A DNA stretch of 64,000 nt, taken from the IMG/VR virus record IMGVR_UViG_3300020450_001133; one strand, written 5' to 3'. How positions within the stretch are numbered: the stretch's first letter is position 1; the number at the start of each line of letters is the position of its first letter. The stretch is from a virus (Duplodnaviria; Caudoviricetes). Below, in pieces: positions 378 through 51,758 of the stretch. Under the pieces are notes generated by a model. That model saw only the letters and a list, made by a program, of their open reading frames with translations, was not told the origin of the DNA and did not search any database. The position numbers and the translations under genes are program-made.

Positions 378-905
378 TTATTCTATTACTTCATCTCCAA
401 CATATTCGGTCCAATCGGTATAGTTGGATCTGTCTTTTAAATCATGCAACTGATGACACCAAACACCTGTGTTAGTTCCTTCAAAGGATTTGTCATCTAA
501 CTTTAGTGTTGCATTATAATTAAACTTGTCTATATAAGGTAACCTAACTGCAATCATTGGAATAAATTTTGCATTTTCATTCCATTTATAATCTTGAAAG
601 TAATTGTGATTAGCAAAGCCACTGTCAAAGTCTAGTGTTACCCAAACATCTGCTTCTAGTAAAGTAGTAATAATAAAATCCCAGTCAGACCAATCTTCTC
701 TCTTAGTTGGCTTAAATGAATCTGCACAACCTAAGTACACATGGTCAATTTTATTGTTTAAGCATCTTGCAAGAATCTCTTTTGGATTCTGTGCTCCAAT
801 AACAAACAATGTTCTTCTGCCTTTTAAAGGAGTTTGTTCAACTTCTTTACCTATAAAGAACTTAGGATCATCTCCAAAGTTTTCTCTTCCTTCTACTTTA
901 GCCAT
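378..905 (-). CDS. hypothetical protein (175 aa)
   Basis: ORF with GGAG SD; FFIGKEVEQTP...TLFV and WCHQLHDL motifs; same run of genes as the TGT-fold gene. Confidence 0.75.
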   Translation of the reverse strand: MAKVEGRENFGDDPKFFIGKEVEQTPLKGRRTLFVIGAQNPKEILARCLNNKIDHVYLGCADSFKPTKREDWSDWDFIITTLLEADVWVTLDFDSGFANHNYFQDYKWNENAKFIPMIAVRLPYIDKFNYNATLKLDDKSFEGTNTGVWCHQLHDLKDRSNYTDWTEYVGDEVIE

Positions 906-1089
906 ATTTTGCTCCGCTGTTTATATCACTCTTTTTCTTTTTCCTTTTAAATAATCTTTGTACGCCACCGCCTATACCCCAAGTTACAAACTTATAACTT
1001 AGATATACTAATAATACATTTATAAAGATAGCCCATACCCACTCTAATATATAGAACATGTATGCTGTCTCCCAATATAAATCAGACAA
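898..1089 (-). CDS. small single-TM protein
   Basis: 63 aa, hydrophobic segment followed by basic tail; overlaps neighbours. Confidence 0.6.
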   Translation of the reverse strand: MSDLYWETAYMFYILEWVWAIFINVLLVYLSYKFVTWGIGGGVQRLFKRKKKKSDINSGAKYG

Positions 1090-1291
1090 TGTAATCCTCT
1101 CGTTCTTTTTTAGCAGTCCTTTTCTTACCTGAAGGACTTGTATATTCGTCTTTGCTTATACCTTTTGTGCCACCATCTTGTTTAGTAACCCAATTGAAAA
1201 ACAATCCAAGTGTTATTGCTACCACAACAAGTATAGTGAACAACAATGTCACTGGCAAAAACAATATATCTGTAACTTCTACTAAATCCAT
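1082..1291 (-). CDS. small single-TM protein
   Basis: 69 aa, N-terminal TM helix, charged C-terminus. Confidence 0.6.
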   Translation of the reverse strand: MDLVEVTDILFLPVTLLFTILVVVAITLGLFFNWVTKQDGGTKGISKDEYTSPSGKKRTAKKEREDYIV

Positions 1292-2208
1292 TTTAAATAA
1301 GTTCTCCCTTTATCTATGCCATTTGCTTTATTTTCAAAAGCATTCTTGGCGTCATCTCTATAATATTCTTTTTCCCACATATCAGAAACTTTTAAACTAC
1401 CGCTCTTAATACATTCTCTAGCATATCTCATAGAATCTAAAAATGTTTTGTCTCTTGGACTAGGACATTTTATTGTAATGTTATTCCAAAGATACTTGCT
1501 GAAGTCTAGATTGTCTACAGTCTTTTCAGCCGCCAATACAAATATACCATTCTCATTTACATAATTGCTTGTAATGTATTGTGGCTTACTTGAATAATCT
1601 ATAAATGCATCAAAGCCTTGTACTCCTGTTGGCATTTGTAAATGAAATCCTGTGTGAGTCATTCTTACAACATCTTGCTTTTCCCAATGCTCAGGATATG
1701 CTTTACCATATACATAAAAGTTTTTATACCCTGCACGTTTTAAAACATAATGTGTAACTCTTGCTAAGAATCCTGTGCCAATAATTGCTATTGTTTGTTC
1801 TTTATCTTCACTGTGATTGTAAACTGCATTAGCAACATTAATACCACATGCTACAGGCTCTAGTATATATTTAGGATCTGCTTTAGGAACTTTAACAAAT
1901 GTTCCTTGTTTAGCATTGTAGTAATCTGCAAAGCCAGGCTCACCTCTAGTTGCAACTATATCGCCTTCCTTCAATCCCATGTTTGCATTTACTAAACTAC
2001 CAACCTTACTAACAACACCAAGTCCTTCATGTCCTTGAATATCCATTGGCAATGTTGTAAACTTACCTTGATACATAGCAACATCACTGCTACACAAACC
2101 AGTCATAACTGCTTTTACTTCTATCTCATCTTTTTCAGGATCAGGCTTATTCCATATTGTTTCACACAAATCATTCTTGCCTGTTGTGTACAATAACTTA
2201 ACCCTCAT
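1282..2208 (-). CDS. zinc-dependent medium-chain dehydrogenase (MDR/Tdh-like)
   Basis: GLCSSD and GHEG catalytic-Zn motifs, EPVAC, Rossmann IIGTGFLA; no 4-Cys structural Zn loop. Confidence 0.85.
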   Translation of the reverse strand: MRVKLLYTTGKNDLCETIWNKPDPEKDEIEVKAVMTGLCSSDVAMYQGKFTTLPMDIQGHEGLGVVSKVGSLVNANMGLKEGDIVATRGEPGFADYYNAKQGTFVKVPKADPKYILEPVACGINVANAVYNHSEDKEQTIAIIGTGFLARVTHYVLKRAGYKNFYVYGKAYPEHWEKQDVVRMTHTGFHLQMPTGVQGFDAFIDYSSKPQYITSNYVNENGIFVLAAEKTVDNLDFSKYLWNNITIKCPSPRDKTFLDSMRYARECIKSGSLKVSDMWEKEYYRDDAKNAFENKANGIDKGRTYLKWI

Positions 2209-3091
2209 AGTACACCTCTAATTGTTTGTGTATCCAAGAATCAATTTCATTATGATAAGAATAATCTTCTGAAAGTCCTTGCACAATCATTTCACCATAC
2301 GCATAATCAGGACATAATCCAAAGTTCCATTTGTAACTGCTATCTTTTGTTTGAACTGTTATTGCTTGGTCATCTATACCGGACTTCCAACCTGCTTCTA
2401 TGTTTATAATTGTATCATTCAGTTGCCATGTTTCTTGTGCAAAGTCACATACATCATATGTTCCACTAGGGTCTACGTTTCCATAGTCTGAATTTAACAT
2501 GTCTCCTATCTTCCATTGTTGAGTCATTGCATAGGATGTTCTAGTTATATGTTGTAAGAACTCTACGTCAAACATTTTAATAAACTGACAATATAAATGT
2601 GGGAATAAGTCTAATGCTACACCACCACCTGCTAGTTTTTTGTTTGTACTCCAACCACCTGGATTAGGAACTCTATTATTATTAAGCCATTTGATATCTA
2701 ATCTCAGCATTTTGTCTGCATTAGGATCATTTGTATAACCTGTAATTGCACCTTGTTTGTCTCTATACAAATTGTTTTTACACATTATAAACTTTGTTGC
2801 TCTGTACTGTTCTACAGTATTGTTCCACATATCAGCACTAGCAAAGCCAGGCTTCTCTACAAATATAACAGGTGCTATATTCTTCTTGGCAATATATGTT
2901 GCAATTTCATAGTGTGTAAAGTTAGGTGTACAAATAACTGCTACATCATATGTGCTATCTACTTTATCTACATTATCATAAGTCGCAGGTAAGACAGAGT
3001 CTACTGTATCAACAGTAAACCCTTTCTTCATTAGTTGTGGCAAATAAACATTCTGTCCTATGCCACCTGCGCCTATTAATAATGCTTTCAT
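2198..3091 (-). CDS. Gfo/Idh/MocA-family oxidoreductase
   Basis: N-terminal LIGAGGIG, FVEKPG and GGGVALDLFPH motifs. Confidence 0.85.
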   Translation of the reverse strand: MKALLIGAGGIGQNVYLPQLMKKGFTVDTVDSVLPATYDNVDKVDSTYDVAVICTPNFTHYEIATYIAKKNIAPVIFVEKPGFASADMWNNTVEQYRATKFIMCKNNLYRDKQGAITGYTNDPNADKMLRLDIKWLNNNRVPNPGGWSTNKKLAGGGVALDLFPHLYCQFIKMFDVEFLQHITRTSYAMTQQWKIGDMLNSDYGNVDPSGTYDVCDFAQETWQLNDTIINIEAGWKSGIDDQAITVQTKDSSYKWNFGLCPDYAYGEMIVQGLSEDYSYHNEIDSWIHKQLEVYYEG

Positions 3092-3277
3092 CTAACTCGC
3101 AAATGCTGAATTTGTTAATCTATCTAACTCTTCTAAGTCTACGTCACCATGCAGTTTTACTTCAAATGTGCCTTCAGGCAAAGTAGTTACTGTATGTGGT
3201 AAATCATATCCTTGTTCTACAAGTTCATTTACTCTTATTGTAAACTCCCTGTATTCGTCTTTACTTAAGATAGCCAT
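3092..3277 (-). CDS. hypothetical protein (61 aa)
   Basis: ORF tightly packed between neighbours, GGAG SD upstream. Confidence 0.65.
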   Translation of the reverse strand: MAILSKDEYREFTIRVNELVEQGYDLPHTVTTLPEGTFEVKLHGDVDLEELDRLTNSAFAS

Positions 3278-4821
3278 TACAACTCCTCCACTAAATCATC
3301 TAGTGCTTTTTCCATTACTTCATCGAACTCGCCTTCTACTTGCTGTTCAACCTCCTCATCAAAGAACATACTAGCCGCACTATTTTTAAATGCACTATCA
3401 TGATCCTTGTGCTTGTTGTTGCTTAAATCATCTAAGAAGTCTTTTGCTTGGTCTAACAATACATGTGGATTATCAGATACAAATAGTTCTTCTACAAATG
3501 TATTAAACATCAATAAGTTCCTTGGTGTCCAAAGGCTTTCTTGATTAAGTTTCTTGCCTTTCTTTTGCCAATGTCTCCAGTCTAACTTGTAGTTTTCAAA
3601 CTCCATTGTTGCTAAACTGTTTGCTTCTTGTACTGCTCTAATGTGCATGTAAACATTGTGGCTCATTAAGATACCATATGTAAAACTATCCCAACTTGTT
3701 TTACCTTCTTTACCAATCTTGTTTAACATACCAGGAGCATACCAGTTACAGTCTCCAGCAGTAACTCTATTACCTATCTCGCTCTCCCAAGGGAAAGGAG
3801 TACTAGATAAGTCACCTGGACTAAAATGGCTAAATGCTTTGTTATCAAAACTCTTCTCCATAATGTAACTCATTTGTTCACTTGTAATTTTATTTCTAGT
3901 GTAAACTAATCCATTTGCACTACTAATATAAGGACTGGCACAATCAAAACTTACTGTTATATTAGGATTGATATGCTTTCTTAGTTGACGTTGTATGCTT
4001 GTTAGCATCACTGCCCACTCTAATTTACTTGTACCTAAGAAGTGTATCCAATCTCTATCTTGCAATAGTTCATCATCTCGCATTGTGATAAGTCTTTTAA
4101 GAACCATATGCATATCTCGAATGTTATTACCACCCATTCCCCATCCTTCGAAAGGATAGTCTTTAACAGTTTGATACCATTCCTCAGCATCATCCCAATA
4201 TGTTCCTTGCAATACATTTAAAAACTTAGTCTTACCCAAACGATTATCTGCAAACCATTGGTTGTTAAATTTAGTACATGCTAAACATTCATCGAAGTTT
4301 TGTAGTCCTGTCTTCTCTCTGAACCCAGGCTTTGCCGCCCAACTAGGAACATCAAGTGTCATACTCCAATCAGCAGTTTGTTCTAACCATGCAAGTATTT
4401 TTGCTCTAGTTCTATCTGCATCACCTTTGTAGTTTCCACTTGCAGGAGTTTCAAAAAAGTTTTCCCAGTCAAATTTAATTACACCTTTACCTATTTGGAA
4501 TCCACCCGAGTCACCTACAATAGTTGTATGTGGTCCTCTTTCTTGTATAATGTATTCCATTATTGCACTTCTATCTAAATCGAGATAGGCATGGCCCGCC
4601 GAGTAAAGTGCGTTGTCATATGTGTAATAACCTTTTTCTTTGTCTAGGAAATTCATTCCTTCGAAGCCATGTTCGAATCCTTTAGGGACTCTGTTTCTAC
4701 CATCTACTTCTGGTATATAACCTTCTACACTATTACATCTGCCCAGTAGTTCTGTAAAGAATCCACTAATAGCAGGAAGAAATACTGCATAGTCTTTGTG
4801 TTGGCTTCCTAAATCTTTCAT
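3277..4821 (-). CDS. TGT-fold guanine transglycosylase-like protein (DpdA/Tgt superfamily)
   Basis: DSGGFQ, MTLDVP, VLQG, GWGMGG, HFLG and FDCASP motifs in TGT order; no CxCxxC Zn motif seen. Confidence 0.8.
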   Translation of the reverse strand: MKDLGSQHKDYAVFLPAISGFFTELLGRCNSVEGYIPEVDGRNRVPKGFEHGFEGMNFLDKEKGYYTYDNALYSAGHAYLDLDRSAIMEYIIQERGPHTTIVGDSGGFQIGKGVIKFDWENFFETPASGNYKGDADRTRAKILAWLEQTADWSMTLDVPSWAAKPGFREKTGLQNFDECLACTKFNNQWFADNRLGKTKFLNVLQGTYWDDAEEWYQTVKDYPFEGWGMGGNNIRDMHMVLKRLITMRDDELLQDRDWIHFLGTSKLEWAVMLTSIQRQLRKHINPNITVSFDCASPYISSANGLVYTRNKITSEQMSYIMEKSFDNKAFSHFSPGDLSSTPFPWESEIGNRVTAGDCNWYAPGMLNKIGKEGKTSWDSFTYGILMSHNVYMHIRAVQEANSLATMEFENYKLDWRHWQKKGKKLNQESLWTPRNLLMFNTFVEELFVSDNPHVLLDQAKDFLDDLSNNKHKDHDSAFKNSAASMFFDEEVEQQVEGEFDEVMEKALDDLVEEL

Positions 4822-5576
4822 TAACTTCTCGCAGGAAGTAAGTATGTGTAAACTCCCATTCCACTGTCTACTTTAATTTGTAGTAAACCTTGATTGTTGA
4901 AACTCATATCAATTGTAGAGTTGTCTCCAAGCCTTAGTATTCTTAACACAACATCTAAGGGCCAGTTCCAATCTGTATTAATCTCGCCATCAACATTGTT
5001 GTTGACTACAATCTTTGTTCTGTTACTTGCACCATCACCAACATTAAATACCAATGCACCATCTTCAGTTTTAGGACTAAAGTTTGCTTCATAGGCTCCT
5101 AAGATACTGTTAAAGTATGTCAAGTCTTTTAACATTTTTTGTGAAGGTTCAATTGTTACATCAAACTCTGCACCTTTAAACTTAATATCTTTAAGTTGTT
5201 GATTAATTACGTCTGCTAACATAAATCTGTAATGAGCATCTGTACCATCTGCACTAACAAACTCTACTTCAGTTGGAACAGTTTCACCATTCCTATCTTG
5301 AGTTTTTACTTGCACCGTTGCATTCTCATCTTCAAATCCAGGATATTGTATGTATCCTTTTAGCACACCCATTGAACTCAAACCAACTGTAGAATCAATA
5401 AAGTCTACAACAGGATTATTCAATGTGCCTTTTAGAATAACTGTCTTATCTGCATCAACAGTTTCAACTTCTGTTACTTCAGAAGTACCTTTTATTTTGA
5501 CCATTTCAAAGATACTCAAATCATGTGTATGTCTGAGTACATCTTTCAATACGTCTTTGATATAATTATCTGCCAT
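4821..5576 (-). CDS. probable DNA sliding clamp (gp45-like)
   Basis: 251 aa, acidic, beta-rich, C-terminal YTYLLPA; near PolB, with a clamp loader in the window; inference from size and context. Confidence 0.55.
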   Translation of the reverse strand: MADNYIKDVLKDVLRHTHDLSIFEMVKIKGTSEVTEVETVDADKTVILKGTLNNPVVDFIDSTVGLSSMGVLKGYIQYPGFEDENATVQVKTQDRNGETVPTEVEFVSADGTDAHYRFMLADVINQQLKDIKFKGAEFDVTIEPSQKMLKDLTYFNSILGAYEANFSPKTEDGALVFNVGDGASNRTKIVVNNNVDGEINTDWNWPLDVVLRILRLGDNSTIDMSFNNQGLLQIKVDSGMGVYTYLLPARS

Positions 5577-18603: not shown

Positions 18604-18631
18604 ATTATACGTCTTTACTCCTTAAAGTCAA
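18604..18631 (-). promoter_or_regulatory. sigma70-type early promoter
   Basis: TTGACT-16-TATAAT. Confidence 0.65.
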
Positions 18632-19025
18632 CCTTTTTTTGCATCTCAATGAATATTTTTTGCATGTTTTTTGAGAGCCACTCTAAGTCTTTGATTTGTA
18701 AAGAACTTTCCATTTTAAACATGTTTCTTTCTATGTATTTTAAGTATTCAAACGTCTTATCTACTAAGGTTTCTGCCTTAAACATACGTTCATCTAACTC
18801 TTCTGGAGTAAAAGTATCCAACAATTCCCAGCCGGTATCCTCAGGCAAAGGGTGTTTTTCTTTTATAAACTGCTCAAAGTCTCTTAATTGTTCTGATGTT
18901 AGTTTACCTGTAAGGTCTTCTATTAGGTCAGGTATTAATTCACTAATGTGTTTTGGTCTGCTTGGAAAAGGAATTACATTATCAGGCGTCTTATCGTCGC
19001 CGTCCTTACCGTTATCTTTTGACAT
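18615..19025 (-). CDS. hypothetical protein
   Basis: 136 aa, NVIPFP motif. Confidence 0.7.
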   Translation of the reverse strand: MSKDNGKDGDDKTPDNVIPFPSRPKHISELIPDLIEDLTGKLTSEQLRDFEQFIKEKHPLPEDTGWELLDTFTPEELDERMFKAETLVDKTFEYLKYIERNMFKMESSLQIKDLEWLSKNMQKIFIEMQKKVDFKE

Positions 19026-34475: not shown

Positions 34476-35227
34476 GGCCTTGCTATTAACACTTGGTCAG
34501 TAGCAGGATTATGAAATACTATATGTTTGTTGATTGGTATGATGTTTAAATTACCTCTCATGCTCTCTAAAGTTTTCACTAATGACTTATCCCAATCGAA
34601 GTCTAATGCCGCTTCGGATATGCCTGCTTCTTCTAGTGTTACCTTTCCTTCTCCAAATTTTACAAATTCTAACTGTACGTTATACTTATAGTCCTTTAAA
34701 GTTAGAATGTCATTTTCTAGAACCGCACTTTGGATTATTGCATTGTCTTTTAAGAAGTTTACAATGCTTTCTTCCTTTTTGCTTTTCTTATCTGCTTCAA
34801 ATTCTTCTTTAGTCATATACTTGTCAGGATCTGTGATAACATATTCATCTAACAATGGATCTGATATATCAAAAGAATCATCTGACAAGAGAGGTTTTAC
34901 TTTCCAATTCATTCTGCCTGATGTGTTTTCTATATCTAAAACATACTCTTTTAACTTATCCAATAATCCTTCTTCTCTGTCTACTTCTACAAACACCATA
35001 TAAAGATTGTCCTCATTTGGATTAGGTGTTACTTCAACATCTCTGAAATTGAAATGACTTTTTTGTAAAAAGTTTTTAAGGTCTGCTCCAACTTTTTCTT
35101 CAGTAACGTAAAAACCTATTACAGATATTTCTTCTTTCTTACCTGTTTTAGGTTCATACTCATCTATACTAATGTTAGATGAAATTACTTCTTCTAAGTC
35201 ACCGTGCCTAATATTTTCATTTATCAT
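34469..35227 (-). CDS. hypothetical protein
   Basis: 252 aa acidic ORF in a late operon. Confidence 0.75.
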   Translation of the reverse strand: MINENIRHGDLEEVISSNISIDEYEPKTGKKEEISVIGFYVTEEKVGADLKNFLQKSHFNFRDVEVTPNPNEDNLYMVFVEVDREEGLLDKLKEYVLDIENTSGRMNWKVKPLLSDDSFDISDPLLDEYVITDPDKYMTKEEFEADKKSKKEESIVNFLKDNAIIQSAVLENDILTLKDYKYNVQLEFVKFGEGKVTLEEAGISEAALDFDWDKSLVKTLESMRGNLNIIPINKHIVFHNPATDQVLIARPC

Positions 35228-35781
35228 ATTATAGGTGCTCCTGGATCTACTGGTGGTGCTAAAGGATCAGCCTGTGGTTGTTGGTCTAATGATTGGTCTT
35301 TTGCACTTTGGATATCTTCCATATCAATGTAGGCATCTTCTGCCGCTTCAACTTGCTCTGTGCTAAACTCATCTACAAATCTTCTTGGCATTTTGATTTC
35401 TACAATCCATACAGGCAATCTTTCTGTTTTAGCAACACGTCTTGGAAGTGTTCCTCTTACTTTGATTTCTGTATCTTCTATGCCTTCAATCTTTTTTGAT
35501 TTAACTAAATCGTCTTTGTACATTTTAACTTTACAGTCATTTTCTCTAAGACGTCTAATTGCATATGGATCAGGCATATCTTCTTGTGGATACATTAACG
35601 CAACTTCAATAAAATACCTGCCTAATTTAGGGCCAGCAACTATTTCTCCTTTGTTCCAGTTCTTGTAAGCATAAACATCAAAACTGTCTATAACACCTTC
35701 GAACTCTAACAACATGTCTAAAAGAGTATTTGTTTGTGATATCTTCTTTACGTTGTCGTTTATAATCTTTAATGTTTGCAT
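35224..35781 (-). CDS. hypothetical protein
   Basis: 185 aa; late motif at 35803-35810. Confidence 0.75.
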   Translation of the reverse strand: MQTLKIINDNVKKISQTNTLLDMLLEFEGVIDSFDVYAYKNWNKGEIVAGPKLGRYFIEVALMYPQEDMPDPYAIRRLRENDCKVKMYKDDLVKSKKIEGIEDTEIKVRGTLPRRVAKTERLPVWIVEIKMPRRFVDEFSTEQVEAAEDAYIDMEDIQSAKDQSLDQQPQADPLAPPVDPGAPII

Positions 35782-49927: not shown

Positions 49928-50719
49928 CTATTTATCGTCTTTAGCAATGATGCCTGCACGTTCTACATACAAAGGCATAGCATGATCCGATACAAAATCA
50001 AAGAATTTGAATTGTTTTATTGCCGCCCAAATACCTCTCCATTGGTCTTTTACTCTTTGCCAATAAGTCATAGTTCTAATTTTTCCATGATGATTAATAT
50101 ACATTAATTTACCACCATGTACAAATAATAACCACGTAGGTGGTACACTAGGAACAATATCGTTGTTATTAACATAACGAATGTATGCACCAATATCGCA
50201 ACCCTCTAGGTGCTGACGGAACAATCTATTTCCTACTCTCGGTTGCCCATAAGTTCTAAGTTCCTTCACTGGAATACCTTCGTGTGTTAATGCTTCTGCA
50301 ACTAATACTGCCATTGCTCCACCTAAACTGTGACCAATAACATATACGTTTTCCTGTTTCTTTCTGTTTGCTTTTACAATTTCTAATACTTCATCAAATA
50401 TTAAATTAGTGTATTCATAAAAGCCTGCATGTACTCTACCGTTACGTGGATGTCTTACTGGATATGTTTTTAAATCTGCTAGTATGTCACTGAACTTAGT
50501 TGGTTCTGTGCCTCTACATGAAACAATAATACCATCGTCTCTTGTAAAAAACACCCATGCTTCTGCATCGCCATCTTTTACAAGAACTGCTTTCTTGCGT
50601 TTCATTTTAATTTGATTTTGAGCATCTTTTAACTCTTGCTCACTGAGATATGCCCTACCAGCCAACTTGGCTAAAACAGCCGCACGTTCGCCTTCGGAAC
50701 AGTCTGCTAACCATCCCAT
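49928..50719 (-). CDS. class 3 lipase (likely start 50719)
   Basis: RGTE oxyanion motif, GHSLGG nucleophile elbow, NNNDIVP, DHAM; AGGAG SD; late motif 50761-50768. Confidence 0.9.
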   Translation of the reverse strand: MGWLADCSEGERAAVLAKLAGRAYLSEQELKDAQNQIKMKRKKAVLVKDGDAEAWVFFTRDDGIIVSCRGTEPTKFSDILADLKTYPVRHPRNGRVHAGFYEYTNLIFDEVLEIVKANRKKQENVYVIGHSLGGAMAVLVAEALTHEGIPVKELRTYGQPRVGNRLFRQHLEGCDIGAYIRYVNNNDIVPSVPPTWLLFVHGGKLMYINHHGKIRTMTYWQRVKDQWRGIWAAIKQFKFFDFVSDHAMPLYVERAGIIAKDDK

Positions 50720-50779
50720 AATTACTCCTACATAATCATAATAGATTTCTATTATAGCAGTATTTATCTTTAAGTCCAT

Positions 50780-50812
50780 AAAAAAAGGGGCCTTATTAGA
50801 CCCCCTTTCTTT
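50780..50812 (-). terminator. rho-independent terminator
   Basis: G-run/C-run stem with U tail, about 25 nt after the -1 frame stop at 50837. Confidence 0.75.
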
Positions 50813-50908
50813 GTAGTTATGTAATTATGTTTATAATTAGCACTCCTTAGGATTGGCTTTACAATACCTTTTTAATTCTTTTATTAAAAGTTTTATATCA
50901 CCATCTAT

Positions 50909-50941
50909 GCCATTCTTGTCTGAATGGCTTAGTCCTTTTTT
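50909..50941 (-). promoter_or_regulatory. candidate programmed -1 ribosomal frameshift signal
   Basis: In-phase A_AAA_AAG (50941-50935), 6-nt spacer, GCCATTC-AGACAA-GAATGGC hairpin (50928-50909). Confidence 0.65.
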
Positions 50942-51213
50942 TCCGGAGTTTCTTTATCTTGTAATTCGTCGGTTTGATTATCAATTTCGTCACTGACAGT
51001 TTCTATTACACCACTAGAGACTTTCGCCGCTGTTGCTGTAATGTCTGATACATCTTCTAAAACTGCTGTACTTACAGTAGCAACACCTTTAACAGAACTA
51101 TCTATTACGCCTGTTGTGAAATCTTTTCCACCTTCAATGACTGCTCCAACTGAGGCACATGATGGTAGTAATACTAAACCAAGGATTGCAAGAAGTGAAT
51201 AAAGTTTATCCAT
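50929..51213 (-). CDS. lipoprotein (94 aa; predicted 125-aa frameshift isoform ending at 50837)
   Basis: Signal peptide with LLPSC lipobox, amphipathic repeats; late motif 51260-51267; AGGA SD. Confidence 0.75.
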   Translation of the reverse strand: MDKLYSLLAILGLVLLPSCASVGAVIEGGKDFTTGVIDSSVKGVATVSTAVLEDVSDITATAAKVSSGVIETVSDEIDNQTDELQDKETPEKKD

Positions 51214-51283
51214 ATCTTCTCCTGATTTATGTTATAAGCCAACTGCTATATAACAGTAATATTTATCATTATAACTGTATATT

Positions 51284-51619
51284 TCAATAGGTTAAAGAGT
51301 CTTTATATACAGGTTCGCCACCTAAACTATGTAGGTCTGCATACCATAATTCTTCTAATAGGATTTTTCGTGTGCTTTCATTTTCTGTAGCATTTATTAA
51401 TGTAATTAAATTTTCTCTATTGGATTGCTCTATCTGATAACATAACTCAACCCATTTGTACATAATAAAAAATGTTCCTGGAACAAAAATTATATAAAGC
51501 AGTTGTATTGGATAATAATATGCAACAAGTAATATGTGTAAACCAATTACAGTTGCTAATTGGATATGTACAGAACGTACATATTTCTTTATTGCTTTAT
51601 TGACTTGGATCTGACTCAT
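51284..51619 (-). CDS. hypothetical membrane protein
   Basis: 111 aa with two hydrophobic segments. Confidence 0.6.
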   Translation of the reverse strand: MSQIQVNKAIKKYVRSVHIQLATVIGLHILLVAYYYPIQLLYIIFVPGTFFIMYKWVELCYQIEQSNRENLITLINATENESTRKILLEELWYADLHSLGGEPVYKDSLTY

Positions 51620-51758
51620 ACATCACAGTTGTTGTACCACGCCAATAACCATCTAATCCTATGTCAACCATAAGTGCAATTAATAGTAGTGTCGCAATAA
51701 TGGAAAGGTATAGATTAATACCTGCGGATATTTTCATCCATTTGATTAGATGTTTCAT
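51597..51758 (-). CDS. small single-TM protein (53 aa)
   Basis: Not in track; MKHLIKWMKISAGINLYLSIIATLLLIALMVDIG...; TTGACA-16-TATAAT at 51765-51792, 6 nt before the ATG. Confidence 0.65.
   Translation of the reverse strand: MKHLIKWMKISAGINLYLSIIATLLLIALMVDIGLDGYWRGTTTVMYESDPSQ

Follow-up and report, generated by a model that had tools for sequence, protein, structure and literature searches.

Does one small phage lipoprotein gene give rise to two proteins that differ at their C-termini? The question is raised by the 3' end of a gene in a 64,000-nucleotide stretch of viral DNA (IMG/VR record IMGVR_UViG_3300020450_001133; its whole length is called the window here), for which the original prediction had proposed a canonical -1 programmed frameshift yielding lipoprotein isoforms of 94 and 125 aa. 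That proposal is supported by a conserved heptamer, a covarying hairpin and selection on the -1 frame, and on these comparative grounds we consider it very probable that a -1 programmed ribosomal frameshift (PRF) takes place at the 3' end of this late-expressed gene.

The window is phage DNA, with 35% GC and nearly all genes on the same strand, and codes for a family-B DNA polymerase, a ClpB-like ATPase, and baseplate and tail-fibre-like proteins. Its polymerase is only 41-45% identical to the enzymes of jumbo myoviruses (Atu_ph07, Phosso, CBB). Neither the region nor two members of the lipoprotein family found a match among 50,697 phage records (megablast, blastn, tblastn), and no relative of the lipoprotein was found in 185,579 bacterial and archaeal species, each represented by one genome. 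Judging from the sequences of its relatives, the gene is widespread in what appear to be uncultured marine T4-like and jumbo phages.

The features of the locus are collected in Table 1. The 94-aa ORF ends in CCG GAA AAA AAG GAC TAA on the minus strand, with a run of seven A (50942..50936). The heptamer A_AAA_AAG does lie in the correct phase (50941..50935), and the perfect 7-bp hairpin predicted to follow it after 6 nt was confirmed at 50928..50909, its arms GCCATTC (50928..50922) and GAATGGC (50915..50909) enclosing the loop AGACAA. It folds with -12.6 kcal/mol (z = -4.2), and none of 200 shuffled sequences was as stable. The -1 frame was likewise found to be open for 32 codons with no start of its own, down to the TAA at 50839..50837; it encodes GLSHSDKNGIDGDIKLLIKELKRYCKANPKEC (GLSHSDKNG...YCKANPKEC) and contains no ATG, GTG or TTG. 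The long isoform is made up of 93 + 32 = 125 aa, in a residue numbering that leaves out the junction residue X, with which it would count 126.

Table 1. Features of the lipoprotein locus and the basis of each assignment (window coordinates).
Feature	Position	Strand	Basis or remark
Small single-TM protein gene	51597..51758	minus	window copy of the recurrent upstream neighbour
T4-late-promoter-like box GATAAATA	51260..51267	minus	leader comparison and RNA contig start
5'-terminal leader hairpin, AGUUG loop	51231..51254	minus	folding
Shine-Dalgarno GGAG	51219..51222	minus	5 nt before ATG, read from sequence
Predicted signal peptide and lipobox (L-P-S-C19, +2 Ala)	51157..51213	minus	family alignment
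0-frame ORF, 94-aa lipoprotein precursor (short isoform)	50929..51213	minus	>137 homologue clusters
Slippery heptamer A_AAA_AAG, X_XXY_YYZ phase	50935..50941	minus	sequence and homologues
6-nt spacer GAC TAA, holds the 0-frame stop	50929..50934	minus	sequence
Putative stimulatory hairpin GCCATTC-AGACAA-GAATGGC	50909..50928	minus	folding and covariation
-1 frame extension, 32 codons + TAA	50837..50935	minus	G at 50935 re-read; TAA 50839..50837
C-x6-C motif, Cys118 and Cys125 of the long isoform	50840..50863	minus	conserved in extension peptides
Intrinsic terminator, hairpin and U-tract	50780..50811	minus	folding, -19 kcal/mol, z = -5.0

By itself this single-genome observation is weak, because in-phase A_AAA_AAG is not rare: four occur in window ORFs of at least 60 aa, and its significance has to come from comparative data. 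Only the lipoprotein heptamer among these four precedes a substantial -1 frame that is not merely an overlapping real gene. Two minus-strand cases serve as internal negatives, the in-phase heptamers at 35497 (ORF 35781..35224) and 18639 (ORF 19025..18615), after which the -1 frame is open for only one codon.

A homologue search yielded more than 137 protein clusters, of ~87-97 aa, from marine metagenomes. Loci were taken from IMG/VR (80), from metagenomes (80) and by exact look-up (5); the window and L001-L161 form a set of 162 sequences, to which L162-L165 were added afterwards. Conservation of the heptamer among orthologues had been named as a check, and in 151 of the 162 sequences it is kept or swapped for another motif of top efficiency: an in-phase A_AAA_AAG or G_GGA_AAG stands at the end of the ORF, together with a -1 ORF of 31-38 codons ending in YCxx(N/F)PxxC. 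G_GGA_AAG, present at ~15 loci of at least two lineages, is the only variant. With a stimulator, C_CCA_AAG, G_GGA_AAG and A_AAA_AAG are the three most efficient -1 heptamers in E. coli (PMC4066793), so the one substitution that the family tolerates is another top motif. The 0-frame stop comes 0 or 1 codon after the heptamer in every member.

The remaining 11 of the 162 comprise four contigs that end before the motif, the frame-broken L161 and six loci without a heptamer. L027-L030, L131 and L132 have AAA CAG instead of the heptamer and a terminator directly after the stop, and the extension is absent; L162, L163 and the distant homologues L164 and L165 have neither heptamer nor extension. The heptamer-less loci are ten in all, every one of them also without the extension, and among the complete loci of the window and L001-L165 the two features are always present or absent together. 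A tree was built from the mature proteins, and only its starred branches were used, as the short alignment limits resolution; in it G_GGA_AAG is nested inside A_AAA_AAG clades, and the loss of heptamer and extension in L027/28 is nested next to the heptamer-bearing L124/L129.

The -1 frame bears the marks of a coding sequence. For the ungapped 21-codon conserved core of the extension, in its 57 distinct nucleotide versions, the -1 frame has a pN/pS of 0.33 and the other two frames have 1.10 and 1.64, which means that purifying selection, looked for among orthologues as the original prediction had advised, is seen in the -1 frame only. Column entropy over the core is highest at the third positions of the same frame. 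The conserved block of the peptides can be written as x-D-I-K-x-L-I-x-x-I-x-x-Y-C-x-x-N-P-x-E-C, with one large clade reading ...LLEAMMLYCSEFPQKC, and the C-x6-C motif noticed in the long form recurs as YCxx(N/F/Y)PxxC in all 62 distinct extension peptides. These data bear on whether the gene is simply decaying, an ancestral longer ORF having been broken by a frameshift mutation to leave the tail as a non-functional relic. Some lineages do lack the tail (L027-L030, L162), as decay would have it, but selection on the -1 frame of the tail is purifying, that frame has stayed open in 151 sequences whose main ORFs diverge by up to ~50%, and an efficient slip site and a hairpin accompany the tail without exception; we hold a relic to be extremely improbable.

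The stretch in which both frames are open is 7-49 nt long. It amounts to exactly the 7 nt of the heptamer in 24 distinct sequences (CCT GAA AAA AAG TAG), where a -1-frame TGA directly precedes the heptamer and a 0-frame TAG directly follows it, so that in these sequences a shift is possible only on the heptamer. The short overlap is also where a two-cistron arrangement has to be weighed, with the downstream peptide made by independent initiation or by termination-reinitiation and never fused. No more than 6 nt separate the 0-frame stop from the start of the -1 ORF, so that coupling would be geometrically feasible. However, neither the overlap nor the first eight codons of the extension contain an ATG, GTG or TTG in 72 of the 75 distinct sequences, which excludes independent initiation in them, and there is no Shine-Dalgarno sequence for the -1 ORF. 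That ORF always opens at or just before the heptamer, and heptamer and extension are lost together. Moreover, a peptide of ~30 aa without a signal peptide would stay in the cytoplasm, where a disulfide between the conserved cysteines is unlikely. Two cistrons are therefore a very unlikely arrangement.

The stem-loop gives a further line of evidence for PRF. One is found 5-7 nt after the heptamer in all clades, and 8-9 nt after it in the L031-type clade. The stems are unrelated between clades, more than 10 different ones occupying the same position, such as GCCATTC/GAATGGC, GCCAGCC/GGTTGGC, CCCCTG/CAGGGG, GCCTATTCTCC/GGAGAATAAGGC, TCTTCATC/GATGAAGA and CCTTTTCTC/GGGAAAAGG. Covariation, another of the checks that had been put forward, was found in two alignments. 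In the gap-free alignment A2 (26 sequences) 93.8% of the cells are paired and double changes occur in four of the 11 pairs; neither the pairing nor the covariation score was matched in any of 500 shuffles, and sliding the 3' arm by 1-3 columns leaves pairing at 41-54%. Alignment A3, the window's own clade (9 sequences), is 100% paired and has two compensatory pairs. Slid controls over both alignments are 27-54% paired. For the L031-type clade the structure is larger, weaker and less certain, with two covarying pairs. Conservation of the extension peptide is lowest in the segment that the hairpin encodes, as would fit a constraint at the RNA level there. No Rfam family came near threshold for the hairpin region, and neither GGAG nor AGGA is conserved at -10 to -14 in the sequences upstream of the heptamer (such as ACTCCGG, GACGCTCC and CAACCTG).

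A simpler account of the locus is that the true gene has eight A and encodes a single 126-aa ORF, the shorter run being a sequencing or assembly error. Such runs are error-prone, and one contig does contain an in-frame fusion (P0119 on L161). We compared Logan contigs from four public runs with 50700..51300. An independent DNA contig (X7) spans 50700..51265 with zero differences from the window; a metatranscriptome contig (X13) spans 50804..51254 with zero differences or gaps, and hence with A7; and a second contig from an RNA library (X16) is identical to the window over 50884..51111. The independent DNA and RNA contigs thus all have A7, and the A8 run on which the original prediction would have fallen did not appear. 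Furthermore, ~150 independent assemblies from many studies have the same frame arrangement, and an error in a homopolymer would leave the G_GGA_AAG members unexplained. An artefact of this kind has next to no probability. The exceptional contig, L161, is pilon-polished and carries at least one further frame break in the same gene.

No in-frame fusion other than P0119 was found among the more than 137 listed protein clusters. P0119 was rejected as a natural fusion, as its contig, of 252 kb and pilon-polished, has the same gene frame-broken again upstream; a shortened A-run fuses both frames in L161, likely a homopolymer assembly error that mimics a natural fusion. In the DNA run X12, whose label is an organism name and not a metagenome, the contig covering the 3' part stops at 50941, within the A-run, and the next begins at 51005; this break may reflect strain variation or a homopolymer assembly break.

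The A-run also invites a transcriptional explanation, in which an extra A inserted by RNA polymerase yields A8 transcripts, and these are translated in the ordinary way into the extended protein. Most members do have a homopolymer of 6-7 A, and a minor population of A8 RNA is compatible with data at the contig level: Logan contigs drop minor variants, and a small A8 fraction would not show. The RNA contig X13 nonetheless carries A7. The run is 6 A in members with CCA AAA AAG and 7 A in the window, whereas slippage in known bacterial cases requires a run longer than 7 A or 8 T (summary in PMC3711429). The ~15 G_GGA_AAG loci, which have 3 A only and no homopolymer, possess the same extension, and a covarying hairpin at a set position 5-9 nt downstream belongs to stimulation of the ribosome, not to slippage. 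Slippage by RNA polymerase is unlikely because of the short A-run, the members without a homopolymer and the positioned hairpin.

Around the cassette, the transcription unit can be delimited at both ends. Of 82 distinct homologous leaders, 69 have the motif NATAAATA at a distance of 50-85 nt upstream of the ATG, and X13 begins at 51254, 6 nt downstream of the GATAAATA box. A sigma-70-like promoter match (TTAACC-16-TATAAT, 10/12) lies immediately upstream of the box, at 51268-51295 on the minus strand; the late box fits the start of the RNA contig better than this match does. The GGAG Shine-Dalgarno is kept in nearly all leaders. An apical loop AG(U/A)U(G/U) was seen in 47 of the 82 distinct leaders (L081-L160 among the homologues); the closing triplets of this leader hairpin covary (AGC/GCU, UGC/GCA, CAC/GUG, CUC/GAG), while its lower stems have nothing in common. 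The hairpin could serve the late transcript as a 5' element that binds a protein or adds stability.

At the other end, the -1 frame had been said to stop about 25 nt before a terminator and the 0 frame more than 110 nt before it, and folding shows a clear hairpin at 50811..50780, missed by a consensus terminator scanner on account of its stem and loop rules; the distance from the -1 stop to this hairpin is ~25 nt, and that from the 0-frame stop ~118 nt. X13 ends inside this terminator, and its run has zero coverage of the intergenic stretch before the next gene. The start, end and coverage pattern of X13 look like a monocistronic late transcript, with DNA carry-over in the RNA library a possible contributor.

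With the competing accounts weighed, -1 PRF would proceed as follows. Ribosomes with AAA-AAG in the P and A sites would be stalled by the hairpin 6 nt downstream, and a fraction would slip back by one base, the tandem re-pairing being to AAA-AAA, and then read 32 codons in the -1 frame; the others would decode one more codon and terminate. One monocistronic mRNA would in this way give a short form (94-aa precursor, 76 aa mature) and a long form (125-aa precursor, 107 aa mature). Both isoforms would have the same lipid anchor and the same helix of 11-residue repeats, and the long one alone would add a C-terminal amphipathic helix and the Cys-x6-Cys pair. We infer the slip itself, and its efficiency (the 'fixed ratio' of the original prediction), from the sequence comparisons. 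Lipidation, an outer-membrane location and any role of having two isoforms are likewise predictions, read from the features of the protein.

An N-terminal signal peptide, a lipobox (LLPSC in the window, FVGC and VASC elsewhere in the family) and a nearly invariant Cys mark the product as a predicted SPase II lipoprotein. Almost no variation is seen across the family in Cys19 or in the ASVGAVIEGGK after it, and with Ala or Ser at +2 the Lol rule of E. coli would predict sorting to the outer membrane. Six 11-residue repeats make up the mature body. When hydrophobicity is averaged over the family, it peaks sharply at a period of 3.67 residues and is almost without power at 3.5, which indicates a hendecad helix and not a coiled coil of heptads. 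For the long isoform, modelled with X at the junction, AlphaFold2 gave a low-confidence structure (pLDDT 51), with one long helix at 37-81 and a C-terminal one at 102-121; a homotrimer prediction for the mature short form scored 0.00, which counts neither for nor against oligomerisation. Two cysteines, 118 and 125, are found in the long isoform alone.

No significant family was found for the lipoprotein in Pfam, PHROGs or NCBIfam. The only family matches, all sub-threshold, were to amphipathic repeats of Senescence, ApoL and Synuclein type; hendecad repeats probably explain these, as well as the matches to adhesin stalks. YadA-type adhesin stalks and PPR proteins were rejected as relatives, being repeat or composition matches to long proteins. 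A profile search of 1.8 billion representative proteins returned only 44 clusters, and a protein atlas only unnamed viral clusters and a weak DUF6726 lead. In a full-text literature search neither a frameshifted phage lipoprotein nor this family turned up.

The gene neighbourhood is not conserved, and varies among marine T4-like phages. In some of these the lipoprotein gene comes after gp43 and two small membrane proteins; at other loci it follows a pelagimyophage-like major capsid gene or a gp32-like gene, and at still others FecR-like and curlin-repeat-like genes precede it and a CHASE2 cyclase lies downstream. The sole recurrent upstream neighbour is a single-TM protein of 45-57 aa, ~450 nt away at 44 of the 80 IMG/VR loci. 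Its gene is usually followed by one for a 2-TM protein of 80-111 aa (window: 51284-51619, minus strand), and in some phages the trio of single-TM, 2-TM and lipoprotein genes stands directly after gp43, which we take to be the position of imm.1 and imm in the T4 gene order. The small membrane neighbours had no significant family in Pfam, PHROGs or NCBIfam. In L006, L014, L019, L020 (about 400-5500) and L161 the lipoprotein gene sits between the FecR-like (~390 aa) and curlin-repeat-like (secreted) genes and that of a 685-aa membrane protein, read by eye as a CHASE2-type cyclase; L161 also has a weak Guanylate_cyc match on a nearby gene. FecR, curlin and CHASE2-type neighbours are unusual signalling cargo for a phage.

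The type of the frameshift signal is textbook; what is new is the gene family, and an exported lipoprotein as the target. E. coli dnaX (tau/gamma) and IS3/IS911 orfAB use the same A_AAA_AAG, with the slippery tRNA-Lys at AAG, and likewise have a 3' stem-loop ~6 nt downstream and two products from one mRNA. The phage signal differs from these in having the 0-frame stop 0-1 codon after the slip site, in acting on a phage lipoprotein and not on a replication or transposition gene, and in its lack of an Rfam match. An SD-like stimulator lies upstream in dnaX but none is conserved in the lipoprotein family, and the dnaX shift shortens the protein whereas the lipoprotein shift adds 32 aa. The lambda-type tail chaperone G/GT is also a conserved phage -1 PRF that adds a C-terminal extension to some chains, and its heptamer, G_GGA_AAG, is that of one lipoprotein sub-clade. 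The G/GT gene is unrelated, however, and the lipoprotein gene is not placed between tail tube and tape-measure genes, its product being exported.

In architecture alone the long isoform is like the T4 o-spanin PseT.2. Both are ~100-aa outer-membrane lipoproteins (by prediction here) of T4-like phages, with a C-terminal helix and then two cysteines at the extreme C-terminus; in PseT.2 both cysteines are required for function (PMC6139136). Unlike PseT.2, the lipoprotein has a helical body of hendecads in place of a Pro-rich or beta region, and its Cys pair is present only in the frameshifted isoform and absent in some clades. BLASTP found no similarity between the lipoprotein and T4 PseT.2, nor between the upstream 1-TM and 2-TM neighbours and T4 PseT.3, and there is no clear adjacent i-spanin; the lipoprotein matched no spanin PHROG or Pfam family. 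Identity as an o-spanin subunit was rejected for want of an i-spanin partner and of spanin homology, and for the variable gene context. Braun's lipoprotein Lpp is also a small lipoprotein of outer-membrane type (+2 not Asp) predicted to be mostly one long helix, but it forms a heptad trimeric coiled coil, in contrast to the 11/3 (hendecad) periodicity of the phage protein; identity with Lpp was rejected too, as there was no sequence or Pfam match and the period is 3.67, not 3.5.

To our knowledge, IS elements, dnaX and phage tail chaperones or capsids account for most of the well-supported examples of -1 PRF in bacteria and phages, and there are few others. The ~150 instances described here, with two interchangeable heptamers, many covarying hairpins and clean co-loss, form a comparative data set on the requirements of a bacterial frameshift stimulator. 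Standard gene calling mis-annotates this widespread marine phage gene: the extension is missed in every case, and databases therefore do not show that an envelope protein has a conserved C-terminal module with cysteines. The results point to control of the isoform ratio of an exported phage lipoprotein, for which we found no characterised precedent in the literature. Perhaps, though this is a tentative and rather doubtful idea, the frameshift sets the ratio between Cys-less forms and forms with the helix and Cys pair, and so tunes an envelope-spanning activity, be it spanin-like disruption, lysis timing or superinfection exclusion. A spanin-like, lysis-tuning role and one in superinfection exclusion or at the envelope would seem roughly equally plausible. 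If the idea is true, the cassette would be a 'dual-stop' counterpart of the dual-start motif of holin and antiholin, widespread in uncultured marine T4-like and jumbo phages.
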